IMG/VR virus record: IMGVR_UViG_3300045440_000165
Coordinates: 1-64,000 of that record
Reading direction: 5' to 3' (one strand)
Length of the DNA stretch: 64,000 nt
Source of the DNA: a virus
The notes beneath the pieces were generated by a model, which did no database searches, had not been told where the DNA came from, and saw only the letters and a program-made list of their open reading frames with translations. The translations under genes were made by a program, and so were the position numbers. This document shows, in pieces, positions 1,455 to 54,761 of this stretch (position 1 is the stretch's first letter; every line of letters begins with the position of its first letter).

Positions 1455-1883
1455 TTATTCCTCTTTTAGTTTTCCATAGTAACGATACCAATTAGGCTTC
1501 ATAGCAATCTTCTCAGAAATACGCTGCCGAATGATAGTAAGAGCTTCTTGTGTAGGGTTGTAATCCCCCAGAAACACTGAATTGCTCTCATACACTCCAT
1601 TAGGATCTAACTCAGACCACTCGTTAAAGTTTCTACCACGCTTACGCAACTCTTCTCTGAGATCATTAAACCTCTGGAAAAGATATGCACCTTTATTATA
1701 AAAGAAGCACACATGCCCAGTGTTAAGAGTGAATACTTTTGGTATTCTTGAAGATACTCCTACTACTCCATAAGCTGTAATCGATCTTGCTAAAGCTTTA
1801 GGCACCATTTTAATCTCACGAAACTCTGCGAATAAGTGTTGATCCATAAGCTCAGATGGTGGTACTAGGTTTATTCTGGTCAT
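1455..1883 (-). CDS. denV: pyrimidine-dimer DNA glycosylase / endonuclease V
   Basis: MTRINLVPPSELMDQHLFAEFREI, FTLNTGHVCFFYNKG and KPNWYRYYG closely follow T4 DenV. Confidence 0.95.
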   Translation of the reverse strand: MTRINLVPPSELMDQHLFAEFREIKMVPKALARSITAYGVVGVSSRIPKVFTLNTGHVCFFYNKGAYLFQRFNDLREELRKRGRNFNEWSELDPNGVYESNSVFLGDYNPTQEALTIIRQRISEKIAMKPNWYRYYGKLKEE

Positions 1884-3273: not shown

Positions 3274-3360
3274 ATCCCCTCCTTGTGTCTAATAATGATA
3301 CGTAGCATAGCAAAGAAATCCTAATAATGCTACTACATTCTAAAATATATTTTTCATTTG

Positions 3361-3934: not shown

Positions 3935-4309
3935 TTATTCAATTAATTTATAAATATCATCAATAATTGATTGTCTATAATTCCAATACTCTTCCTTCAC
4001 ATCCTCATCATACCTCTGCGCTGTAACCATTTTATACCACTCCCATACGTTGCAAAGCTTCTCTGCTGTACAATATCCAAGTTCAGTGTTTCCATGTATT
4101 TTCTTTACTTTAGTCCGATGTTTAACAATCCTGAGTGTTGCAATAGCTCCCTTTAAAACATCATCATCGTCGTAGAATACATATTCAACTTTTACATGAT
4201 GTCCACGGATGTTAGCTAGTACAACACCAATCATCCCCCTACACAATTTCCCATCTTGAAATAAAATTACTCTATCTCCGCGTTTCATTACACTTCTCCT
4301 GTAGCACAA
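3935..4309 (-). CDS. hypothetical protein
   Basis: ORF track; probable start at the internal MKRGD after AGGAG. Confidence 0.65.
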   Translation of the reverse strand: MCYRRSVMKRGDRVILFQDGKLCRGMIGVVLANIRGHHVKVEYVFYDDDDVLKGAIATLRIVKHRTKVKKIHGNTELGYCTAEKLCNVWEWYKMVTAQRYDEDVKEEYWNYRQSIIDDIYKLIE

Positions 4310-4470
4310 TAAATATCAAACATTTCCCACCATAGGCCATTATTATCTTCGTCAAAGCTTAATGGATAGCCTTCAGGGTTGCTAAGATGCTTTTCATAAT
4401 AAGCAGTTTTGAATCCCTCTATATCAACCTCAACTTCACAAACAAAATCAAATAAGCTAAGCATATTCAT
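4288..4470 (-). CDS. small acidic hypothetical protein
   Basis: ORF track, co-oriented and overlapping the next gene. Confidence 0.6.
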   Translation of the reverse strand: MNMLSLFDFVCEVEVDIEGFKTAYYEKHLSNPEGYPLSFDEDNNGLWWEMFDIYCATGEV

Positions 4471-4531
4471 CCTTAAATATCAAATTTTAAAATATTAAAT
4501 TTCAGAATTAGGATTTCAAAAGTATAGGTTT

Positions 4532-4660
4532 TCAAATTCCTATGTTTTCATCTGAGGTCAACAAACCCTTCGCAATAGCATATGCGGTTATTAGCGGCAA
4601 TCGCTTTCTAAGTCGCCAGTTTGCACATACGTACATTGCTGCATAATCTCGCTTTCTCAT
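4532..4660 (-). CDS. 42-aa hypothetical protein (below track cutoff)
   Basis: AAGGAG RBS; MRKRDYAAMYVCANW...ENIGI*. Confidence 0.55.
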   Translation of the reverse strand: MRKRDYAAMYVCANWRLRKRLPLITAYAIAKGLLTSDENIGI

Positions 4661-4668
4661 GTCACTCC

Positions 4669-4756
4669 TTGTTATAGCCCCTTAGAGCCATTATTTACTA
4701 TCTAAGCCACATCCCTATTAAATTATAATTTAAAGAGCTTGTAGGGGGTTTAAAAT
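4669..4756. repeat. ~90-bp intergenic element, copy B
   Basis: GTTATAGCCCCTTAGAGCCATT ... TAAAGAGCTTGTAGGGGGTTTAAAAT. Confidence 0.45.
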
Positions 4757-4785
4757 CACTCTACTAAGGTTTTTAAGCAAGATTT

Positions 4786-5310
4786 CTAATCTGTGTATAA
4801 CCAATATGATAGAAAATTAACTACGAAATCCACAGATACACATATTTCCCCTTTATTTTGTAAATCATTCCTATCTTCAATAAACATTTCTTTTGTTGGA
4901 TTTTTTAAAATTAAAGTAGACATATCTGAAATTATTTTTGGTAACGGTTTATTTGTCTTTACTTGAAAAACTTGTACACCACCTTTCAGTATAAACATTA
5001 AGTGGTATGTATCCTGCGGCGTATCCTGCGGCGTATCCTGCGGCGTATCCTGCGGCGTATCCTGCGGCGTATCCTCCAGAATATCCTCTTGATATTCCAC
5101 TTCTTTAATCATAGCTTTAAATGCAGCTATCGTACTTCTTACGCCATGCATGAAAATATCTCTTGCTGTGCTTCCATTTCCCCCTCCATACTCCACTGCT
5201 GAACAACATTGTATCTCAGCTTCTTTTAAATATTCTTTATTATCTTCGATAGTTATGTTATCTAAAGCGGATATTAGCGCATCGTAGCTTGTGTATTTTC
5301 CAGTATTCAT
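4786..5310 (-). CDS. hypothetical protein with (DTPQ)5 linker
   Basis: ORF track; AAAGGAG RBS. Confidence 0.75.
   Translation of the reverse strand: MNTGKYTSYDALISALDNITIEDNKEYLKEAEIQCCSAVEYGGGNGSTARDIFMHGVRSTIAAFKAMIKEVEYQEDILEDTPQDTPQDTPQDTPQDTPQDTYHLMFILKGGVQVFQVKTNKPLPKIISDMSTLILKNPTKEMFIEDRNDLQNKGEICVSVDFVVNFLSYWLYTD
5009..5075. repeat. perfect 12-bp tandem repeat GTATCCTGCGGC, five full copies plus a partial
   Basis: units start at 5009, 5021, 5033, 5045 and 5057. Confidence 0.95.
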
Positions 5311-5311
5311 A

Positions 5312-5734
5312 TTATTCTCCTTTAATTATCAATTTACCTTCTAGACCATGCTTAGTAATATACTCTTGTAAATATTTATTGTGCTCTTCTATGCTAGTGT
5401 GTTGAGAATTAGCTAATTCCGCTTCCTCCAATTCCAACCTTTCCTGCAGGATAATTTCGTCAAAAGTGCTCTTACGGTGATAGAAAGCTTCAACAGAGAA
5501 TAGCAAGTCATCACTATAATCAAAATCTGTCTCTACATTAAATTGTGCTCCACTTCTGCATTCTTCAGGAATAGCTTCCAGCATATCTTTTAATGTAATA
5601 ACAAATTCTTCAAAGTAATGAGCATCGCAAGGGCCAGAAGCTATTACTACTTTCGTTGTATATGGGTGGCTATATGTTTTCATTCGAATTCTCCTATATC
5701 CAGATTCCCTATATTTACTTGTGCTAAGTAGCAA
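5312..5734 (-). CDS. hypothetical protein
   Basis: ORF track; probable start MKTYSH at 5683. Confidence 0.7.
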   Translation of the reverse strand: MLLSTSKYRESGYRRIRMKTYSHPYTTKVVIASGPCDAHYFEEFVITLKDMLEAIPEECRSGAQFNVETDFDYSDDLLFSVEAFYHRKSTFDEIILQERLELEEAELANSQHTSIEEHNKYLQEYITKHGLEGKLIIKGE

Positions 5735-5916
5735 ACACTAGAGATAACAACACTTTGCCCACGTCTATATGCTGGTGACATAACCATCACTGCGCTATCT
5801 CTATTCTCTTCGGGAATTGACTCCAAAGCAGCTTGCAGTTTTGCAATATAATGCTCTAAATTAAGAGCAAGAAATGTATCCTCTTCCCGAAACACTGTCT
5901 TCCTTCTCTTTGTCAT
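5680..5916 (-). CDS. hypothetical protein
   Basis: ORF track with ATGA overlaps; LESIPEENR resembles LEAIPEECR in the downstream gene. Confidence 0.7.
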   Translation of the reverse strand: MTKRRKTVFREEDTFLALNLEHYIAKLQAALESIPEENRDSAVMVMSPAYRRGQSVVISSVCYLAQVNIGNLDIGEFE

Positions 5917-6158
5917 TTTATTTCCTTAAGTTTTTTATAAATATAAGTTCTAGACACTTTGCAAAGAGTGGCAGCTTGTGAGATTGTTAGCCCTGCCTGC
6001 TTGTGCAGATATGTTGCTAGCATTATAGGATCTATAATTAAGTTTAGGTTAATATTAAAAGCTGCTGCAAGTTCCTCTATGTTGCTATGCTGTAAGTCAT
6101 TACCGCTTTTAACATTACAACGTATCATAGCGGACTCTAAGTTTGTTGGTGATGTCAT
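5913..6158 (-). CDS. helix-turn-helix DNA-binding protein (candidate early repressor)
   Basis: C-terminal GLTISQAATLCKVSRTYIYKKL HTH pattern. Confidence 0.75.
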   Translation of the reverse strand: MTSPTNLESAMIRCNVKSGNDLQHSNIEELAAAFNINLNLIIDPIMLATYLHKQAGLTISQAATLCKVSRTYIYKKLKEIK

Positions 6159-6337
6159 ACCTTTCCTTTCATAAGCTCTAATTCAAGTTTTATTGCATTA
6201 CGTAATTCTGTAATCTCATTGATAGCTTGCATGTGACTATTAAATCGCAATTGTGCAACATTATCAAAGTAAGTTAAATCCCTATCCAGCAAATTGTTCA
6301 TTTTATTAATTAATGTTTCTTGGCGTTTATTGAGCAT
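6155..6337 (-). CDS. hypothetical protein
   Basis: first ORF after the leftward operator-promoter; GGGAG RBS. Confidence 0.65.
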   Translation of the reverse strand: MLNKRQETLINKMNNLLDRDLTYFDNVAQLRFNSHMQAINEITELRNAIKLELELMKGKV

Positions 6338-6367
6338 TTTATTCTCCCGTTGTTTGTTAGTGTTAAT

Positions 6368-6396
6368 ATTCTACGTCTAATTTTTGTACATTGCAA
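6368..6396 (-). promoter_or_regulatory. early-class promoter with operator-like spacer (leftward)
   Basis: TTGCAA-TGTACAAAAATTAGACG-TAGAAT on the minus strand. Confidence 0.8.
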
Positions 6397-6661
6397 GTAA
6401 ATGATAAAAATAAATCTGTTATTTTAAAACATGCCCACTATGATTTCAAATCTGAAAATGGCTAGAAAGTCTCCCATTTTTTTACCTTCCTTCTTAAGGG
6501 ATTTTTCCCCATTCCTAACAAAAAGATAACAATTGCTTAAATCATAATATGTCAAAAAGATAATATTAGCTATTCTGCAATATTTATTTATTGCAATAAT
6601 AAAGAAATAACAACAAATTATATTACTTACATTGTGTTTATATAAATATCCTCTGATAAGC

Positions 6662-6747
6662 TATTAAACGAGTTATAAGCCATTTTATTAATTCGCCTAG
6701 GTTTGGTATTAACTTCTGAAAATAATCGATTCTAGAGTGGTTTAAAG
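6662..6747. repeat. ~90-bp intergenic element, copy C (most diverged)
   Basis: TTATAAGCCATTTTATTA...TGGTATTA...TTCTAGAGTGGTTTAAAG. Confidence 0.4.
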
Positions 6748-6804
6748 CGCTTGCTTGCCTCGCATTCAGTGTTAAAATTCAGCTAATTTAAACTCTAAAG
6801 ACGC

Positions 6805-6885
6805 AAAAAAGCACTCACGGCAAGAAATTGTGCCTATGAGTGCTAATATATTAATGCTCGAATTGTGGAGGCATTTTGCGCCTCA
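6805..6885 (-). ncRNA. putative small RNA of about 80 nt
   Basis: TTGCAA-16-TAAAAT promoter (6919-6892); 5' hairpin GAGGCGCAAAATGCCTC; terminator AGCACTCA...TGAGTGC-TTTTTT. Confidence 0.55.
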
Positions 6886-7048
6886 GTTAGAATTTTACAT
6901 GATTTTTTAGACTTTGCAAAGAATTTTTGAGGAATGTCAAATTTAAATTTTTATTGTGGCGTAAGCTTACTAGTGTTGTTAAACACAATTACTGTTGTAG
7001 CACGAATTTATTAATTTATTCACTCACCCACTTAAAGGAATTTTTATC

Positions 7049-7402
7049 ATGTCGCAAATTTTGTGCAGATTAGACAGTCAATTATCCCCAGTGGTTTTTA
7101 TATCTGACAGCATTGACGATAATAAAATATTAGCTTGGAAGAATGGTAATAAAAGTGCTGAAATTGTTAGTCTTGATTATTATAAAACTACTCTACCCTT
7201 AACTATTGCAGATAGTAAATTACTCGCTAAAAAATACAGCGAAGCCACGGGCGATAATGATATAGAGATTCGTCAACGATTGCCAAGACTTTACAAACAG
7301 AAAGATATATTGCAAGATAAAGAACTTAAAAAAGATATTGACCAACAGAAGATTGATGAGCTTGCGCATAAAATCGCTAAGATTATAGCGGAATACCTTT
7401 AG
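7049..7402 (+). CDS. early-region hypothetical protein
   Basis: ORF track; AAAGGA RBS. Confidence 0.75.
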   Translation: MSQILCRLDSQLSPVVFISDSIDDNKILAWKNGNKSAEIVSLDYYKTTLPLTIADSKLLAKKYSEATGDNDIEIRQRLPRLYKQKDILQDKELKKDIDQQKIDELAHKIAKIIAEYL

Positions 7403-7533
7403 TAAGTATCCCCAGTAAAACAGCTTTAAAATTCTTTTTAAATTTATTTTCAAAATTCGCTTGCGTATCTAAACTACTTTTGATATATTGAGGGTCTGGA
7501 CGGGGCAAGCGAAAGAAGTAAATAATTTTTTAC

Positions 7534-7562
7534 TTGCAATGTCTAATAATTAGACATATAAT
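7534..7562 (+). promoter_or_regulatory. early-class promoter with perfect palindromic spacer
   Basis: TTGCAA-TGTCTAATAATTAGACA-TATAAT. Confidence 0.9.
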
Positions 7563-7594
7563 TAGCTAGGCTTACAAATAAGGGAGTGTTAATC

Positions 7595-8149
7595 ATGCTT
7601 GACAGCATAACAATTGAGAAATGCGGATATTCTTTTGATGTGATTATGGAACAAGATTGTCATATGTCGCCCCCTTGGTTAGATTTTGATGGTCATGGCG
7701 TTATTGTTGACAAAGGTTTGTTTAATCATAAAAAACCAAGCGAATTAAAACTAGGGAGTTATCATTTTTATGATTTTAGATTATCAATGCAAAAAGCGTT
7801 AACTGAATCGTGGAGCATTCCTGAGGATTTAAAGTTACAGCTTGAATTTAAAAAAGGAGCTAATCTTACAAAACGAGAAATTGCGCACCATGCTGTAATG
7901 CAGGATTATAAATATCTATCAGATTGGTGTGATGATAGATGGACATTTGCTGGAATTAGAGTCAAATGCGGGGAAAATGAAAAAAGTTTATGGGGAGTGG
8001 AATATAAATATTTTGTTGATATTGAACAACAGAGTTATTTAATGTCTACAATTCATGATGTAATTGATGAACTTGTGTATACAGTGACTAAGGAGCAACA
8101 GGAAGTTGAATTTTGGAATATGCGCGATGTTGTAACATGCGTTTTATGA
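7595..8149 (+). CDS. early-region hypothetical protein
   Basis: track ORF 7586..8149; ATG at 7595 follows AAGGGAG. Confidence 0.8.
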   Translation: MLDSITIEKCGYSFDVIMEQDCHMSPPWLDFDGHGVIVDKGLFNHKKPSELKLGSYHFYDFRLSMQKALTESWSIPEDLKLQLEFKKGANLTKREIAHHAVMQDYKYLSDWCDDRWTFAGIRVKCGENEKSLWGVEYKYFVDIEQQSYLMSTIHDVIDELVYTVTKEQQEVEFWNMRDVVTCVL

Positions 8150-8226
8150 CATGCGTTTAATATTGGCTTATTCTGTTATGTTAGAATAAGGTAGTGTTTA
8201 AAAATTACTTAAATAAAGGAAATAAA

Positions 8227-8568
8227 ATGCCTAAAAAAGAACCTTATGAATACTTGCAAGAACTTGAAAATTCGGCATGGTCTAGAGCTGAATCTTTTAT
8301 AATTATCGATCCTAAAAATAGCCCACTTAGCAAGCATGGCAAAATAAAAGTAGCATACCCCGCGAAAGGTGAAGGGAAATTGCAAGCGTTTGTATGGGAT
8401 ATATTAGGGCATCCGGTGCAACGTGGAGTTGCTAGAGGTTATGGGTATGATAAGTTAAGCTCTGCATTAGCAGGGTTAAAATTTGATACTATCACTTTCA
8501 CGGATCATCCGACAAATTGGGATACGCGATTAAGAGGTGCAGGATATATAATTATTCGCGCAATGTAG
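8227..8568 (+). CDS. early-region conserved phage protein (GYGYDK motif)
   Basis: track ORF 8194..8568; ATG at 8227 after AAAGGA; ARGYGYDKLSSAL. Confidence 0.75.
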   Translation: MPKKEPYEYLQELENSAWSRAESFIIIDPKNSPLSKHGKIKVAYPAKGEGKLQAFVWDILGHPVQRGVARGYGYDKLSSALAGLKFDTITFTDHPTNWDTRLRGAGYIIIRAM

Positions 8569-8879
8569 GGTTTTAAAATTACTTAATAAAGGAATAAGCA
8601 TGTCAGTATTTAAATTAACAAAAGAACATCAAGCCAAAATTAAATGCGAGGTTTATAGTTTTTTAAAAACTATTTGCCCAAAAGTAGATAGGAAATATTA
8701 ATCGTGTATAAACTAATTAGATTTTGCGCATGGTATCAAGTAGTTTTAGTATCTAACAATAAAGTTATGTTTCAATCAATTAATAAACGACGAGCGCAAG
8801 AATGGTTAGATATTAATTCGATTAATGCAGGGTAGTCTTTGTTACTACGCGCTAACTGCAATTTTAAATAGGTGATATT

Positions 8880-9053
8880 ATGCATATAAATGTAAGATTT
8901 TTTATATATTGCGGTAATAATGAGGAATGGGAGGTTGTAGAGTGTACAGAATCGGAATTTCTCAATGCTGAAGGGGTGATTGAGTATGAAAGGAATACAG
9001 CGTTTCAAAACGGGGTGAATCAAATCTGTCTTACTAAAAATCCTTTTATTTAA
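8880..9053 (+). CDS. 57-aa early hypothetical protein
   Basis: AGGTG RBS; MHINVRFFIYCGNNEEW...NPFI*. Confidence 0.6.
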   Translation: MHINVRFFIYCGNNEEWEVVECTESEFLNAEGVIEYERNTAFQNGVNQICLTKNPFI

Positions 9054-9066
9054 TCGTAGAATTTAC

Positions 9067-9095
9067 TTGTGTTGTCCACTTTTTAGACTTATAAT
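9067..9095 (+). promoter_or_regulatory. early-class promoter with operator-like spacer
   Basis: TTGTGT-TGTCCACTTTTTAGACT-TATAAT. Confidence 0.8.
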
Positions 9096-9127
9096 TAGTT
9101 GTACTATTAAATTTAAAGGGGAATACT

Positions 9128-9277
9128 ATGCTAGATGAATTATTGTTTGAGGATATTAGTTTTAGCACTAAAATTGTATTGGCAGGGTTTATTTTGTTAG
9201 CTCCTGTATTATATGCCAGTGATAGTATTGTAAATTATGCTATCGCAAATTTTGCTATTTTACATTTTTTATTTTAA
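9128..9277 (+). CDS. 49-aa hydrophobic (membrane) protein
   Basis: AAGGGG RBS; two hydrophobic stretches; first ORF after the promoter. Confidence 0.55.
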   Translation: MLDELLFEDISFSTKIVLAGFILLAPVLYASDSIVNYAIANFAILHFLF

Positions 9278-9287
9278 GGGGGATATA

Positions 9288-9536
9288 ATGGAAGATTACT
9301 ATATTTTCTTTGTCGCAGAGTGTTACTTAAGCGCTATTATTAACGACGATTACTCAGGGATTGAGGACGATGCAGAGCGTATGAAAGTGAGTGATTTTAT
9401 TGTGGAGTGTCACAGACTAGGTAGGGGACATTTCAGCGTAGACTTAGAATATAGCGAGAATTTCAGGAGGTGCTACATCAGTGGCTTATTCGCGGATTGT
9501 GAGGAATTAAGATATTATGTAAGGAGTAAGGCTTAA
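9288..9536 (+). CDS. acidic early hypothetical protein
   Basis: track ORF 9237..9536; ATG at 9288 after AAGGGGG. Confidence 0.7.
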   Translation: MEDYYIFFVAECYLSAIINDDYSGIEDDAERMKVSDFIVECHRLGRGHFSVDLEYSENFRRCYISGLFADCEELRYYVRSKA

Positions 9537-9556
9537 TATTTATTTTGCTTGTGTGC

Positions 9557-9585
9557 TTGCAATGTCTGAAAATTAGATTTACAAT
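9557..9585 (+). promoter_or_regulatory. early-class promoter with operator-like spacer
   Basis: TTGCAA-TGTCTGAAAATTAGATT-TACAAT, followed by a 28-bp leader identical to 7564-7591. Confidence 0.85.
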
Positions 9586-9617
9586 GCAGCTAGGCTTACA
9601 AATAAGGGAGTGTTATT

Positions 9618-9773
9618 ATGTCGTACGAACAAAGGTATAATTTTACAATGTATTCACCATTGGTAACACTTGCGCCATTGCTAAGGTATAGTCTTGCAAA
9701 CGATGATTTTGGTAATCTTGTCATTGTATCGGCTATTTCGTGGCTGTCAGCTCATTATTTTGTTAATAATTAA
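9618..9773 (+). CDS. 51-aa early hypothetical protein
   Basis: AAGGGAG RBS; MSYEQRYNF...DDFGNLV. Confidence 0.6.
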   Translation: MSYEQRYNFTMYSPLVTLAPLLRYSLANDDFGNLVIVSAISWLSAHYFVNN

Positions 9774-9787
9774 TTAAGGGATATATC

Positions 9788-9991
9788 ATGTCTAAACATA
9801 CGCCAGTGCATATTATTAGCGCGCATATAACAACTAATTTAAAGACTAACATTAAGACTTACTATTTAAATAGCAAACGAGTATCTAAGGACGTGTATAT
9901 TCTAAAGGAAATAGCAGCTAAAAGTTTTTATTGCTTATATAGAACATGTTCAAAAACCCACTGCAGGGATTATAAGACTTTTATTTATTGA
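9788..9991 (+). CDS. early hypothetical protein
   Basis: ORF track; AAGGGA RBS. Confidence 0.6.
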   Translation: MSKHTPVHIISAHITTNLKTNIKTYYLNSKRVSKDVYILKEIAAKSFYCLYRTCSKTHCRDYKTFIY

Positions 9992-10001
9992 AAGCATTAT
10001 T

Positions 10002-10229
10002 ATGAGTATATACGAAATTTGGATTAAGCACGATAAAATTCATAGAAAATACAGAAAGTTATCGGTTACAATGAAAGAACCTATGTTTAGTGTTGCAAGC
10101 TTATATGCGGATCAATGGGCGATTGATAACAATCAAAATAGAGATTTAATAGCGGTAAAGATTGTCAATTCTGACACTAGGTCTGAATTTATAATGTGTA
10201 GCAAGGCTACTTTTAGAATTGAAAGTTAA
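10002..10229 (+). CDS. early hypothetical protein
   Basis: ORF track. Confidence 0.6.
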   Translation: MSIYEIWIKHDKIHRKYRKLSVTMKEPMFSVASLYADQWAIDNNQNRDLIAVKIVNSDTRSEFIMCSKATFRIES

Positions 10230-10271
10230 ATTAGAATTTTTAAAGGCTAAGAAATAAAGAGATAAATTTGC

Positions 10272-10300
10272 TTGTAATGTCCACTAATTAGACATATAAT
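10272..10300 (+). promoter_or_regulatory. early-class promoter with operator-like spacer
   Basis: TTGTAA-TGTCCACTAATTAGACA-TATAAT. Confidence 0.85.
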
Positions 10301-10336
10301 TAAATACCTTCTTAAATTTAATAAAGGATGTTTCTT

Positions 10337-10504
10337 ATGTTAAAACTAGCATTAGTACGCAAAGCTATAAAGTTATTTCCTGTTGTTGATTACACTAATA
10401 AAGATAATGTTAAACATGCGCGTAAGGAGTGGATAAAGGCGCAATATTATTTAAGAGATAATAAGTTGTCTATGAAGCCGTTGATTAATATCAAGGGAAA
10501 TTAG
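10337..10504 (+). CDS. 55-aa basic early protein
   Basis: AAAGGA RBS; MLKLALVRKAIKLFP...KGN*. Confidence 0.6.
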   Translation: MLKLALVRKAIKLFPVVDYTNKDNVKHARKEWIKAQYYLRDNKLSMKPLINIKGN

Positions 10505-10505
10505 T

Positions 10506-10787
10506 ATGAGAACATGGACAAAAAGAGATGAATCCAAGTTAGAATATTTAGGTTTAATAGAATTTAAAATTAATAACGAGTGGCATAATTTTGAGATTAT
10601 GCACGACAATGAGTATGTTGTGTTTGGTAGTGCTACGAACACGGGGTTTTTGCAAAGTGGCTATATGCTAAAAGATGAATTCTTAGCATTAGACGAGAAC
10701 TTACAACAGTTACTAGAGGAATTAGAGACGTATTACCATCTAGGTAAAGAATATTGTTCTAGCATTGTCACTAATGAAAGGATGTAA
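10506..10787 (+). CDS. early hypothetical protein
   Basis: ORF track. Confidence 0.7.
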   Translation: MRTWTKRDESKLEYLGLIEFKINNEWHNFEIMHDNEYVVFGSATNTGFLQSGYMLKDEFLALDENLQQLLEELETYYHLGKEYCSSIVTNERM

Positions 10788-11190
10788 AACCATGAAAAAA
10801 GCAATTAAAATCACAGATAGTAATAAAGATGTAATAGAATCTTTATTAAAACAAATCAATGGTCGAAGTGTAACACATGTATATTCATCATTTAAAGATG
10901 TGGAAAGTATTGTAAGTCATGCAGAAAAGCAATTGGCATCTTTACGACTTCCTAAGAAAATGTATAAGGATGCAAAATATACGAGCGTATCCGGTGATAG
11001 TGTTGCAAGCGCGTATAAGTATGGCAGAAATGCAACTGAAATTGTAATTGTTAGAAAATCCGCTGCATGGTATGTTGAGAAGGTTAGAAGTGTAAATGTC
11101 TTTGCAAGCGGCGGAAATGATAGACTTTACTTGACAGAAAAGCAAGATATAGAAGTGGTTAAGAAAGTTAGACAATTATATAATGTGTAA
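10765..11190 (+). CDS. early hypothetical protein
   Basis: ORF track; probable start at MKKAIK. Confidence 0.7.
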   Translation: MSLMKGCKTMKKAIKITDSNKDVIESLLKQINGRSVTHVYSSFKDVESIVSHAEKQLASLRLPKKMYKDAKYTSVSGDSVASAYKYGRNATEIVIVRKSAAWYVEKVRSVNVFASGGNDRLYLTEKQDIEVVKKVRQLYNV

Positions 11191-11224
11191 TTCATACTAT
11201 TTGCTGGATAAATAAAGGAAATAT

Positions 11225-11521
11225 ATGTCTAATTTAAAAGATAAAATGCCTCCCAGTAATATCAGTACTGAAGAATTCTTTAAGTATTATTGCAAGGATG
11301 ATAATGCTATATTGTTTTACGAGCAAGCTAGAGATTCTCAAGACAATGCAGAAAGAAGAATTAAACCTTTAGAAAATGAAAACGAATGTATAAGGGAACA
11401 ATTAAATTTTGCTTTAGACGCTATCAGAGATATGGAAATTATGCTTGATAGAGTAACAAGATTGACAGAGTATAAAAAAGAGTTTATTAGAATTTTAGAT
11501 GATAGCTATTTGGAAAGATGA
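11225..11521 (+). CDS. early hypothetical protein (coiled coil)
   Basis: ORF track; AAAGGA RBS. Confidence 0.7.
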   Translation: MSNLKDKMPPSNISTEEFFKYYCKDDNAILFYEQARDSQDNAERRIKPLENENECIREQLNFALDAIRDMEIMLDRVTRLTEYKKEFIRILDDSYLER

Positions 11522-11533
11522 GAGGGTGTCACA

Positions 11534-11989
11534 ATGAACGAAAATATAATCATAGCAAGTAAAGTAGCCGCAATTAATCAAATGCATAGCTTTATTAATG
11601 GGATAGTTCCAAAGCTTATTGATATGCTAAAACAAGGGTATAAATGTAAAAAGGATGGAAGTTTGTTCGATAAGGATGCAAGGGATTTACAGGGAATAAT
11701 TAACAATGGCAGTGTGAAGTTACATTCTGCATTTGTCGATAGTAATGGGTATTCTGTTGTCTTGAGAGTTAAGAATGCCTATAAAACGGGGGAGTATAGC
11801 TGCAATTACGTAGAGCGTTCTGTGTGGCTATGTTCTTATGAACGAATTTTCGAGGAATTTACTCCATTTTGTGAGAACATGACAGAAAGTTATTATAAGA
11901 ATATTCAAGATATAATAGAAGAAAAGCAAGAGATGATTGATAAATTGCAAGGTGAGATAATGACAGCTAAAAGGGAAATATATTTATAA
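11534..11989 (+). CDS. early hypothetical protein
   Basis: ORF track; GAGGG RBS. Confidence 0.7.
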   Translation: MNENIIIASKVAAINQMHSFINGIVPKLIDMLKQGYKCKKDGSLFDKDARDLQGIINNGSVKLHSAFVDSNGYSVVLRVKNAYKTGEYSCNYVERSVWLCSYERIFEEFTPFCENMTESYYKNIQDIIEEKQEMIDKLQGEIMTAKREIYL

Positions 11990-11998
11990 AGGGAGTGT

Positions 11999-12319
11999 AT
12001 GATACCAACAACTGATAGAGTGCTATTCTTAGATGCTTACATTGAGTGTGCGGAATGGGCAGACGAGGAGTTACTTGCATACTGCGACACTGAAACATTT
12101 ATGAAAGATGCAATAGAAGATTGCAATTCGTTTATAATAGCTAATGAGGAATTATTAACAGAGTATTGCAATCGCGGCTATGATTTAAGTCAAGCTGGAC
12201 ATGACTTTTGGCTAACACGTCAAGGGCATGGGGCGGGTTTTTGGGATAAAGGCATGGAAGAACTAGGGGAACAATTGACAGCGATTGCCGAAGCATACGG
12301 GAGTTATTGCAATTTATAA
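11999..12319 (+). CDS. acidic early protein with GHDFWLTRxGHGAGFWD motif
   Basis: motif recurs in phage early regions; function not known to me. Confidence 0.75.
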   Translation: MIPTTDRVLFLDAYIECAEWADEELLAYCDTETFMKDAIEDCNSFIIANEELLTEYCNRGYDLSQAGHDFWLTRQGHGAGFWDKGMEELGEQLTAIAEAYGSYCNL

Positions 12320-12342: not shown

Positions 12343-12368
12343 AAGCCACTCTAACCGGTGGCTTTTTT
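12343..12368 (+). terminator. intrinsic terminator closing the early island
   Basis: AAGCCAC...GTGGC-TTTTTT. Confidence 0.8.
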
Positions 12369-13780: not shown

Positions 13781-14500
13781 CTACCACCTTGTGGTAATAT
13801 TCGCCACAGTCTTAGCATACCATTTCCCTCCCCGTTGAGTTTTATTACCATGTAAATTTAACTCTTCAGCTATAGCATGAAAGCTCATCCCATCTTTACG
13901 CATACGAGAGATTGTAGGTTTCATGAACAATGCAAAATTATCAGCTTCTTGCTTATTAGCAATTACACTTTGCTTGTTAGCTTTATGAGCATGAGCGGCT
14001 ACAGTTGGAAGAGACATTCCTAATGGCTCCCCTCTGGCTTTCTTAGCAGCGAAAGCAGCTTTAGTCCTCTCACCAATCTTCCTACGCTCCTCTTCTGCAA
14101 AGGAAGCTCTCAATTGAATTTCTAGAGGAGATACATCTATCCCGCATTCAGCTACGATAAATTTGGCAGAGCCATATTTGGTAGAAGAGTCCATGAGATT
14201 GAATATAAAGCTAGCTTTCCTAGACAGCCTATCAATCTTAGAAATTAGAATAGAAGCTCCTATCTTCTGAGCATCTTTGAAAGCTTGCTTTAGTATGGGC
14301 CTTCTATCAAGATCATATTTACCAGATACTATTTCTACCCTAGTATCAATTATCTCAATACCGTGGTAGCTTGCAAAGCGCTTCATATCTTCTATTTGAG
14401 CTTCCACCCCTAATCCTGATTTCCCTTGCTCTGTAGTGGAAACACGAGCATAGGCTATTACTTGCTTGCAAGCTATAGCTTGTTTAGATATTGATTTCAT
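13781..14500 (-). CDS. serine recombinase (resolvase/invertase family)
   Basis: AYARVSTTEQ catalytic Ser motif, RP.L, KIDRLSR, and C-terminal IAEELN...TQRGGKW. Confidence 0.93.
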   Translation of the reverse strand: MKSISKQAIACKQVIAYARVSTTEQGKSGLGVEAQIEDMKRFASYHGIEIIDTRVEIVSGKYDLDRRPILKQAFKDAQKIGASILISKIDRLSRKASFIFNLMDSSTKYGSAKFIVAECGIDVSPLEIQLRASFAEEERRKIGERTKAAFAAKKARGEPLGMSLPTVAAHAHKANKQSVIANKQEADNFALFMKPTISRMRKDGMSFHAIAEELNLHGNKTQRGGKWYAKTVANITTRW

Positions 14501-53897: not shown

Positions 53898-54761
53898 TCA
53901 TAACGGAAACGCTTCCAAAATAGGAACACCATCGATAATCAACCCGCAGCCAATGACAGGGCGTTTTAAATTTACATTGTTATAAGCAAAAGCATAACTA
54001 TCATCATCAATAAGACATCCCACCTGCATACTAAAATAAAGTCCAAGACTATTACCCCAATATTGAATGTTAAATTTTTCATGGTAATGCCCTTGTACAG
54101 CACTCATACCCATTGTCTGTGATAGCTTCAAGCCATCTGCAGCTTTACCATGATGGAAGAATACATGCTGGCCTGTAGGTAGTAGCAATGTTAAGTCATT
54201 GTGCCATTTCCATCCGTCACCTACACCTAGAATTTCATTATAGGATTTAATGCAATGCAGAGGGATTCCATGATGCTTTGCTTTCCTATACACAAGACTT
54301 CCGTGATTACTATCTATTAAGTCTACAACTGGAAACATCTTTTCTATTTCTTGAATAACCTTAATTGCCTCTTTAAGTTCATCGCCAGCAGATAGTAAAT
54401 CGGGATGGGAATCGTGAAAAGAAATCTGGTGATATTCAAGTTCATCTCCGATAATTACAACCCTAGTAGGATTATGCTTATCCTTCAATCTTTGCAAGAA
54501 TTCAATCAGTCCGTTTACATGATAAGGAATATGCATATCGCTAATAACTAAGATACTAGCATTCCTAGCAACTTCATCATCCACATCATCATTCTTCATC
54601 GCTTCATACTTGCGCAAGAAATCCGACACTGTAGAGCGAGGGACATCTAACACTCTTGCAATATCTCTCCAAGATAATACTTCAGATTTGTGAAGTGCAA
54701 TAGCATCTTTCTGCCAATCGCTTGCAGATGTTTGTTTGTTATTTTTCAAATTAGCTCCCAA
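53898..54761 (-). CDS. HTH-fused metallophosphoesterase
   Basis: SWRDIARVLDVPRSTVSD HTH; SDMHIP, GDE, SNH, HG and GHYH. Confidence 0.85.
   Translation of the reverse strand: MGANLKNNKQTSASDWQKDAIALHKSEVLSWRDIARVLDVPRSTVSDFLRKYEAMKNDDVDDEVARNASILVISDMHIPYHVNGLIEFLQRLKDKHNPTRVVIIGDELEYHQISFHDSHPDLLSAGDELKEAIKVIQEIEKMFPVVDLIDSNHGSLVYRKAKHHGIPLHCIKSYNEILGVGDGWKWHNDLTLLLPTGQHVFFHHGKAADGLKLSQTMGMSAVQGHYHEKFNIQYWGNSLGLYFSMQVGCLIDDDSYAFAYNNVNLKRPVIGCGLIIDGVPILEAFPL

Follow-up and report, generated by a model that had tools for sequence, protein, structure and literature searches.

A 17-bp dyad filling the spacer of five putative early promoters in a new phage lineage: candidate operator of a small helix-turn-helix protein

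The window analyzed here comprises bases 1-64000 of the IMG/VR virus record IMGVR_UViG_3300045440_000165 (75,734 bp, estimated to be 88% complete). It contains an early region in which five promoter-like sites carry closely related sequences between the -35 and -10 boxes. One novel feature is a 17-bp dyad that occurs in constant register and coincides exactly with the whole spacer. These spacer sites may constitute an operator for a repressor, a reading that stands at about an even chance. The fuller proposal, in which an autoregulated repressor shuts off early transcription and the binder is an 81-aa protein with a C-terminal helix-turn-helix (HTH) motif, falls slightly short of even. The scores listed for the five sites are those of a position weight matrix of the 17-mer and the number of complementary pairs about its centre.

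6368-6396, minus strand: P_L, putative leftward early promoter; candidate operator at 6374-6390, 21.2 bits, dyad 4/8
7534-7562, plus strand: P_R1, putative rightward promoter; spacer 7540-7556, a perfect 8-1-8 palindrome, dyad 8/8
9067-9095, plus strand: P_R2, putative rightward promoter; operator-like spacer 9073-9089, 21.0 bits, dyad 4/8
9557-9585, plus strand: P_R3, putative rightward promoter; spacer 9563-9579, the weakest match at 19.1 bits, dyad 4/8
10272-10300, plus strand: P_R4, putative rightward promoter; operator-like spacer 10278-10294, 24.4 bits, dyad 6/8

All five sites have the form TTGNNN, a 17-bp spacer and TANAAT, with spacers of the type TGT(C/A)-N6-TTAGA(C/T). A previous, sequence-only reading of this DNA had described five promoters with 17-bp spacers, each before a ribosome-binding site and a gene, and had picked out the spacer of the promoter at 7534 as a perfect palindrome; all five were found as described and the palindrome is exact. 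The pattern TTGNNN-TGT-N7-TTAGA-NN-TANAAT has five exact matches in the window and nine with up to three mismatches; 100 shuffled sequences gave 2.57 on average and at most 6 (0/100 reach nine). With up to two mismatches, the whole 75,734-bp record yields five matches, the five promoters only, and the reversed control pattern yields one. Because the pattern was built from the five sites themselves, these match statistics are partly circular. Three features are independent of it: clustering, distance to the start codon and the weight-matrix gap. The promoters all fall inside 3.9 kb, the end of the -10 box lies 30, 32, 32, 32, and 36 nt from the start codon, each start having a Shine-Dalgarno-like motif, and the matrix gives 19.1-24.4 bits for the five sites and 14.0 bits for the next best site on both genome strands (at 3286). 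In a scan with the sigma-70 consensus, three of the five promoters reach 9-10 of 12 matches, and all five have TTG at -35 and TANAAT at -10. Judged by these boxes, the sites are probably host sigma-70-type early promoters. An extended -10 element was rejected, no TG being marked at any of the five, and an ECF-type -10 box on the opposite strand was discarded by reading since it has no consistent -35 partner. An RNA hairpin was likewise rejected as the role of the spacer dyad, because the site lies upstream of the expected transcription start.

Conservation among the five sites is confined to the promoter core. Over the ten promoter pairs, pairwise identity averages 0.77 for the -35 box, 0.73 for the spacer and 0.88 for the -10 box, as against 0.375 over the 40 nt before the core and 0.345 over the 40 nt after it. 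Similarity thus ends sharply at the 29-bp core, the spacer being conserved about as well as the -35 box and the flanks lying at random level. Spacer positions 1-3 and 11-15 are invariant in 5/5 sites, and the spacer consensus is the dyad GTC-N9-GAC, its two arms lying at positions 2-4 and 14-16. The five sites have 4, 8, 4, 4, and 6 of 8 possible complementary pairs about the centre, compared with a mean of about 2.1 in random 17-mers of the same composition, for which the probability of at least four pairs is 0.13 and that of at least six is 0.0055. In the consensus and in two of the sites the dyad is clear; in the other three it is marginal. As an internal control, four other sigma-70-like promoters of the same genome (3361-3389 and those upstream of 20310, 26969, and 32687, the latter three read by eye) have unrelated spacers. 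The external control is the early region of Pseudomonas phage KPP10 (47419-61847), where the spacers of eight promoters of the form TTGACx-16-TAGAAT show 0.40 pairwise identity and score 1, 3, 3, 5, 1, 1, 1, and 1 of 8 for the dyad.

The candidate binder is encoded in the leftward operon. P_L would read the 60-aa gene, the HTH gene and further leftward genes, the first two being:

6155-6337, minus strand: 60-aa gene, first of the leftward operon; no family match
5913-6158, minus strand: gene of the 81-aa candidate autoregulated repressor, second behind P_L; HTH at about residues 50-79, at the C-terminus

The HTH gene has 4-nt start/stop overlaps with both neighboring genes and a good ribosome-binding site. 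In Pfam, residues 50-79 match HTH_23 (E 8.5e-4), HTH_28, HTH_3 (E 0.0028), HTH_17, HTH_7 and others, up to E 0.07. NCBIfam gives a weak excisionase domain (TIGR01764), and PHROGs a weak match to a terminase-small-subunit HTH. The HTH that had been assigned to the second gene of the leftward operon is upheld only weakly, every Pfam match being sub-threshold. Among 5.8 billion proteins a single homologue was found, P0002, encoded on a 9,426-bp contig, with 68% identity to the 81-aa protein. The predicted recognition-helix residues 65-77 are identical in the two proteins, which fits an unchanged operator core in the relative. A phmmer search of 1.84 billion representatives returned only the protein itself and two weak matches in long proteins; neither tblastn against cultured phages (E up to 1) nor a PDB profile search (E up to 10) returned anything. 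This near-orphan candidate regulator is a second novelty. Six-frame searches of the genome with HTH_3, HTH_23, and HTH_17 found only the 81-aa gene and one other, listed here; being limited to these three models, they would miss ribbon-helix-helix or other DNA-binding folds in the orphan open reading frames (ORFs).

53898-54749, minus strand: 283-aa fusion of HTH_23 and metallophosphoesterase in the replication arm; N-terminal HTH_23 above cut-off, phrog_221

The arrangement of promoter and HTH gene recurs in the sole relative recovered by a metagenome scan, a 2,462-bp contig (L076) with 75-84% DNA identity to the window over the alignable parts. Two promoters can be observed in it:

L076, 1628-1656: leftward promoter, counterpart of P_L; directly before the HTH gene, 33 nt to the start codon
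L076, 868-896, minus strand: rightward promoter, counterpart of P_R1; followed by an extra small ORF, then by a 182-aa protein homologous to the 184-aa protein of the window

Both (2/2) keep the TGT...AGAC core, each spacer differing from that of the window at 3/17 positions, and in the rightward promoter the changed positions are ones at which the five window sites differ as well. L076 lacks the 60-aa and 78-aa genes and keeps the HTH and 123-aa genes, so that an operator-bearing promoter stands directly before the HTH gene despite the missing 60-aa gene. The co-occurrence of motif and HTH gene in relatives, which had been proposed as a check, is thus seen in the one relative there is (1/1), with promoter-HTH synteny kept. 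Extra constraint on the operator site beyond its surroundings is not demonstrated by this comparison. Homology between the window and L076 ends right after the rightward -10 box, and about 50 nt further upstream are identical. Because of this break, the promoters appear to be module boundaries for gene gain and loss, which fits a 28-nt leader that is duplicated within the window (7564-7591 and 9588-9615, plus strand, identical), a leader/ribosome-binding-site unit following both P_R1 and P_R3. Since their spacers and genes differ, the identical leaders behind P_R1 and P_R3 may reflect either a functional leader or recombination at promoter units.

No further relatives emerged. Megablast of 5000-12000 against cultured phages gave nothing, nor did IMG/VR searches with the HTH protein, the 184-aa protein, the ClpP-like protease and two exact conserved DNA stretches. 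A motif scan of IMG/VR yielded 70 loci with one match each, none having a second operator-like site or an HTH homologue, and these single matches were taken as chance.

Several smaller features accompany this region. A sixth promoter-like site at 6895-6923 (minus strand; TTGCAA, 16 nt, TAAAAT) has a strong operator half-site adjoining its -35 box and precedes a candidate small RNA; the half-site is not kept in L076. The candidate small RNA (about 6800-6890, minus strand) folds at -34.3 kcal/mol (z -5.7, equalled by 0/200 shuffles), ends in a 3' hairpin and U-run, and has a body conserved in L076; Rfam found nothing in 6300-7620 but a sub-threshold iscRS match (19 bits against a gathering score of 40). 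Relative to window positions 5680-7600, L076 has lost most of the 117-aa gene at 7049-7402 and has gained the extra small ORF between the rightward promoter and the 182-aa gene. The identical stretch of about 50 nt upstream of the 7534 promoter (within 7424-7515) contains, in both phages, a 9-bp inverted repeat with arms about 38 nt apart. Compared with P0002, which comes from another assembly, the HTH gene of L076 has a 1-nt deletion in a T-run (about 1780-1795), through a mistake in assembly or as a natural frameshift variant. A hydrophobic mini-ORF of 17 codons (6424-6477, minus strand), which has a strong Shine-Dalgarno sequence, ends 27 nt upstream of the P_L -35 box and recurs in L076 at 1547-1600 (plus strand) with 13/17 residues conserved; its product may be a small membrane peptide or a leader peptide.

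Taken together, the sites and the protein suggest the following mechanism. The early sigma-70-type promoters would use the host RNA polymerase and carry a 17-bp operator (core GTC-N9-GAC) built into the -35/-10 spacer. Once it has accumulated, a phage-encoded dimeric DNA-binding protein, most likely the 81-aa protein made from P_L, would occupy the spacer operators. Binding would hinder RNA polymerase and lower transcription of the protein's own operon together with that from the four tandem rightward promoters. Such negative feedback, of the Cro, Arc or Aca type, would limit repressor synthesis and end the early phase. The feedback timer envisaged by the sequence-only reading is in keeping with a spacer conserved like the -35 box, a dyad consensus, an HTH gene in the leftward operon and the synteny in the relative, and to that extent it stands as a proposal. 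Its further claim of graded operator affinity gains nothing here: the sites do differ in match (19.1-24.4 bits), and nothing ties match to affinity.

A number of observations weigh against this proposal. Three of the five sites have only 4/8 dyad pairs (P 0.13 each), and in L076 the leftward site has 2/8 and has changed at two positions where all five window sites agree. At both promoters the two phages match at 14/17 spacer positions, which is not above the regional 75-84%. The early promoters of KPP10 conserve the 3' end of their spacers without a known operator, the last six positions being conserved in 6, 5, 6, 7, 4, and 8 of 8, so that some conservation beside the -10 box can be a plain promoter feature. 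P_R1 and P_R3 have the duplicated leader in common. All Pfam HTH matches of the 81-aa protein are under the curated cut-offs, and since this protein is nearly an orphan, the co-occurrence of motif and gene rests on one relative.

A competing explanation is a promoter family without a repressor. On that explanation, the spacers are alike by duplication or shuffling of cassettes, they are kept for promoter strength or for contact with RNA polymerase or a phage factor, and the HTH protein acts elsewhere. The identical 28-nt leader behind two promoters, the break in homology after the -10 box with genes gained or lost at promoter boundaries, the conserved spacer 3' ends of KPP10 and a between-phage spacer identity at background level all agree with it. 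Plain descent, however, would decay evenly, whereas here spacer conservation equals that of the -35 box and the flanks are no more alike than random sequence; moreover, the conserved bases make up a dyad, no extended -10 TG is marked, and other consensus promoters of the genome lack the motif. The explanation is rather unlikely. Promoter duplication, the scenario that had been named as fatal to the repressor, is partly borne out (the leader at two units, cassettes that break at promoters) and is opposed by the random-level flanks and the dyad. Near-duplication of promoters also occurs in KPP10, where two early promoters agree at 14/16 positions.

Alternatively, the operator may be real and be read by another binder, either a host nucleoid or global regulator such as Fis or another orphan phage protein, which is distinctly unlikely. 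Most early ORFs are unclassifiable, and a ribbon-helix-helix or other binder could hide among them; yet the HTH gene and the 123-aa gene are the only ones among the first leftward genes that L076 retains. As for Fis, the five sites have far more sequence in common than is needed for its binding. Fis sites prefer A/T at positions +/-3. According to an excerpt of PMC7166090, the sites favored by Fis and lambda NinH are of the form G-N13-C around an AT-rich core, with pyrimidine-purine steps at +/-4 and +/-3. Four of the five window sites fit G-N2-Y-A-N5-T-R-N2-C, and P_R3 fails G-N13-C. A generic Fis-like pattern is nevertheless not enriched genome-wide, with 55 matches against 63.8 in shuffles, and because it is common and unenriched, the fit of the sites is weak evidence.

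The 81-aa protein itself offers some leads toward Fis-type DNA recognition. Its neighbors in a protein language model, which serve as leads only, are small viral "putative transposase" clusters (0.91, 0.88), followed by Fis-type HTH_8, NinH, and HTH_50 (0.83-0.84). HTH residues 53-81 agree at 16/29 positions (55%) with the C-termini of two sigma-54 activators of the NtrC type from metagenome-assembled genomes, a likeness inflated by selection since these two were picked from 56 eight-residue word matches; the C-terminal end of the NtrC-type proteins is an HTH_8 domain (E 3.6e-9). An hhalign comparison with 15 Fis sequences gave a weak match (probability 36%, P 3.8e-4) over 48 columns, at Fis residues 48-95. 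More direct searches were negative: six-frame searches of the genome with the HTH_8 (PF02954) and Phage_NinH (PF06322) models, at E up to 10, gave no match, HTH_8 is absent from the hmmscan of the protein at E up to 10, and BLASTP against Escherichia coli Fis and lambda NinH gave nothing at E up to 100. The common ground with Fis and NinH is a small protein, an HTH at the extreme C-terminus, as in Fis, and G-N13-C sites with an AT-rich center, as far as the excerpted account goes (PMC7166090), whereas the HTH_8 and NinH models are unmatched and the sites are far more specific than those of Fis. A Fis-type reading of HTH and site is suggestive only, and the protein is not assigned to the Fis family. 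The boldest version holds that a virulent freshwater phage gates its whole early set, some 22 orphan genes in two divergent arms, by one tiny orphan protein with a Fis/NtrC-type recognition helix acting on G-N13-C spacer dyads, as a sequence-specific Fis-like off-switch, with host Fis perhaps reading the same sites and so coupling early expression to the growth state of the host; this is improbable.

Least likely of all, and very improbable, is that the HTH protein activates or remodels the promoters (MerR-like or by bending) or serves the 239-aa serine recombinase as an accessory or directionality factor: the presence of the recombinase at 13781-14500, the weak matches to resolvase-type HTH_7 and to the excisionase domain TIGR01764 and the Fis-type leads, Fis being known to assist invertases, are offset by a spacer at the optimal 17 bp and not at the over-long 19-20 bp of MerR-type promoters, by the absence of an operator-like site near the recombinase (best non-promoter score 14.0 bits, at 3286) and by the place of the HTH gene in an early operon behind an operator-bearing promoter in both phages. 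A MerR-type activator was rejected, its activation geometry not being needed because all spacers are 17 bp; MerR is also absent from the Pfam matches of the 81-aa protein, whose HTH is C-terminal, not N-terminal.

The proposed repressor has well-known counterparts. Lambda Cro is a small HTH protein of the early operon whose 17-bp, partly symmetric OR and OL sites overlap divergent early promoters, and it turns down early transcription, including its own. The candidate system is similar in combining a small HTH protein from an early operon with partly symmetric 17-bp sites over divergent early promoters. It differs from lambda in having no CI partner and no tripartite operator, with one site per promoter, exactly in the spacer, at five promoters, and the protein shows no Cro/HTH_3 membership, its HTH_3 match (E 0.0028) being under the cut-off. 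The operator of P22 Arc lies between -35 and -10, and arc is the first gene of its operon. At Pant and Pmnt, this small autoregulatory repressor binds an operator that overlaps the core promoter and acts by slowing open-complex formation, not by mere exclusion of the polymerase, in the excerpted description of PMC2724298. A small autoregulatory phage repressor with an operator over the core promoter would thus be common to both systems (PMC2724298, in part), but Arc is a ribbon-helix-helix protein with one operator, unlike the HTH and five sites found here. Aca repressors, as presented in part of PMC9410906, are HTH autorepressors whose palindromes overlap the core promoter of acr-aca operons, which contain small fast-evolving phage genes; a candidate HTH autorepressor and palindromes over the core promoter of a small-gene operon are the shared elements (PMC9410906, in part). 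In contrast to these operons, no known Acr or Aca family was detected here with Pfam, PHROGs and NCBIfam (no Aca library was used), the candidate regulator gene comes first or second in a long operon, and one operator type would gate the whole early region instead of a single short cassette.

Lytic phages provide two further parallels, each taken from an excerpt of the source. T7 Gp5.7 is a winged HTH protein that represses phage promoters dependent on the host polymerase and also contacts the polymerase (PMC5569994), and Gp36 of mycobacteriophage D29 is a MerR-like protein that binds GC-rich direct repeats and represses phage promoters of the same kind (PMC12266134). Both are small DNA-binding repressors of host-polymerase-dependent promoters in lytic phages, as the protein considered here would be, but neither, as far as these excerpts describe them, has a dyad filling the spacer of each promoter. 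The regulatory logic is well known from Cro, Arc, Aca and Gp5.7, and close analogues are in print among early-promoter repressors of lytic phages and Aca proteins; the gain lies in the lineage and the protein family, both of them new, and not in the principle. If the repressor reading is true, one small repressor and one 17-bp operator that fits the sigma-70 spacer exactly would form a compact portable unit, and would explain how a phage without its own polymerase ends its early phase. The approximately 22 unknown genes would then form a single early set under common control and would merit screening for host-takeover functions.

The uncultured freshwater phage that carries this region belongs to a new lineage that is almost without relatives and very sparsely sampled. 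Its full genome is roughly 86 kb. The G+C content ranges from about 32 to 44%, and there is one tRNA. Genes of the record include the large terminase, the portal, the major head protein, a ClpP-like protease, PhoH, an exonuclease and:

13781-14500: serine recombinase, 239 aa

The phage had been called apparently lytic, which is plausible, though the recombinase is a point on the other side. The family-A DNA polymerase has 46-52% identity to polymerases of Aeromonas phages and of the Pseudomonas PAK_P3/KPP10 group. PAK_P3, a distant relative, is wholly dependent on the host polymerase, and 78.7% of its 75 mapped starts are of sigma-70-like type, in the excerpt of PMC10914365. The phage described here probably depends on host RNA polymerase as well. 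Several freshwater metagenome runs, and one labelled marine, contain near-identical DNA. In four DNA runs there are short contigs almost identical to the window, the listed differences being three single-base changes and one 3-nt deletion. At 1455-1883 (minus strand), a DenV-type pyrimidine-dimer glycosylase is encoded; 38 IMG/VR loci carry homologues of full or partial length at 44-71% identity, and a further one has a 26-residue fragment. None of these 39 loci carries any other early gene of the phage, and they were rejected as relatives because the DenV-type gene is mobile between unrelated phages and no other early gene is in common.

The putative early promoters stand in a divergent block of small genes, running leftward from 6337 down and rightward over 7049-12319 (own ORF call). 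Apart from the 60-aa and HTH genes, its components are:

3935-5916, minus strand: further leftward small ORFs of 78, 123, 174, 42, 58, and 117 aa; no named function
7595-12319, plus strand: sixteen rightward small ORFs of 33-184 aa, behind the four tandem promoters
12343-12364, plus strand: terminator-like hairpin (8 pairs, 4 of them G-C, then a T-run) that closes the rightward early block

None of the 16 rightward and 7 leftward ORFs has a named function in Pfam, PHROGs or NCBIfam. No early ORF is above the Pfam cut-offs, PHROGs gives only "unknown function" families for 5/16 rightward ORFs (phrog_11104, 30347, 26599, 32809, and 1915), and NCBIfam gives nothing meaningful among 20 ORFs, those of 33, 43, and 106 aa being left out. 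The same three libraries, which are far from complete in this respect, returned no anti-CRISPR or anti-defence match for any of the 23 regulon ORFs. The suggestion that the block carries anti-defence cargo accordingly finds no backing in the 23 scanned ORFs, and nothing supports or contradicts such a role. Homologues of the 184-aa protein, at 27-34% identity, occur in the early-type regions of KPP10/PAK_P3-like phages and others. The 174-aa early protein (4786-5310, minus strand), which has no family match, contains five tandem four-residue repeats (PQDT) in the middle of its sequence.

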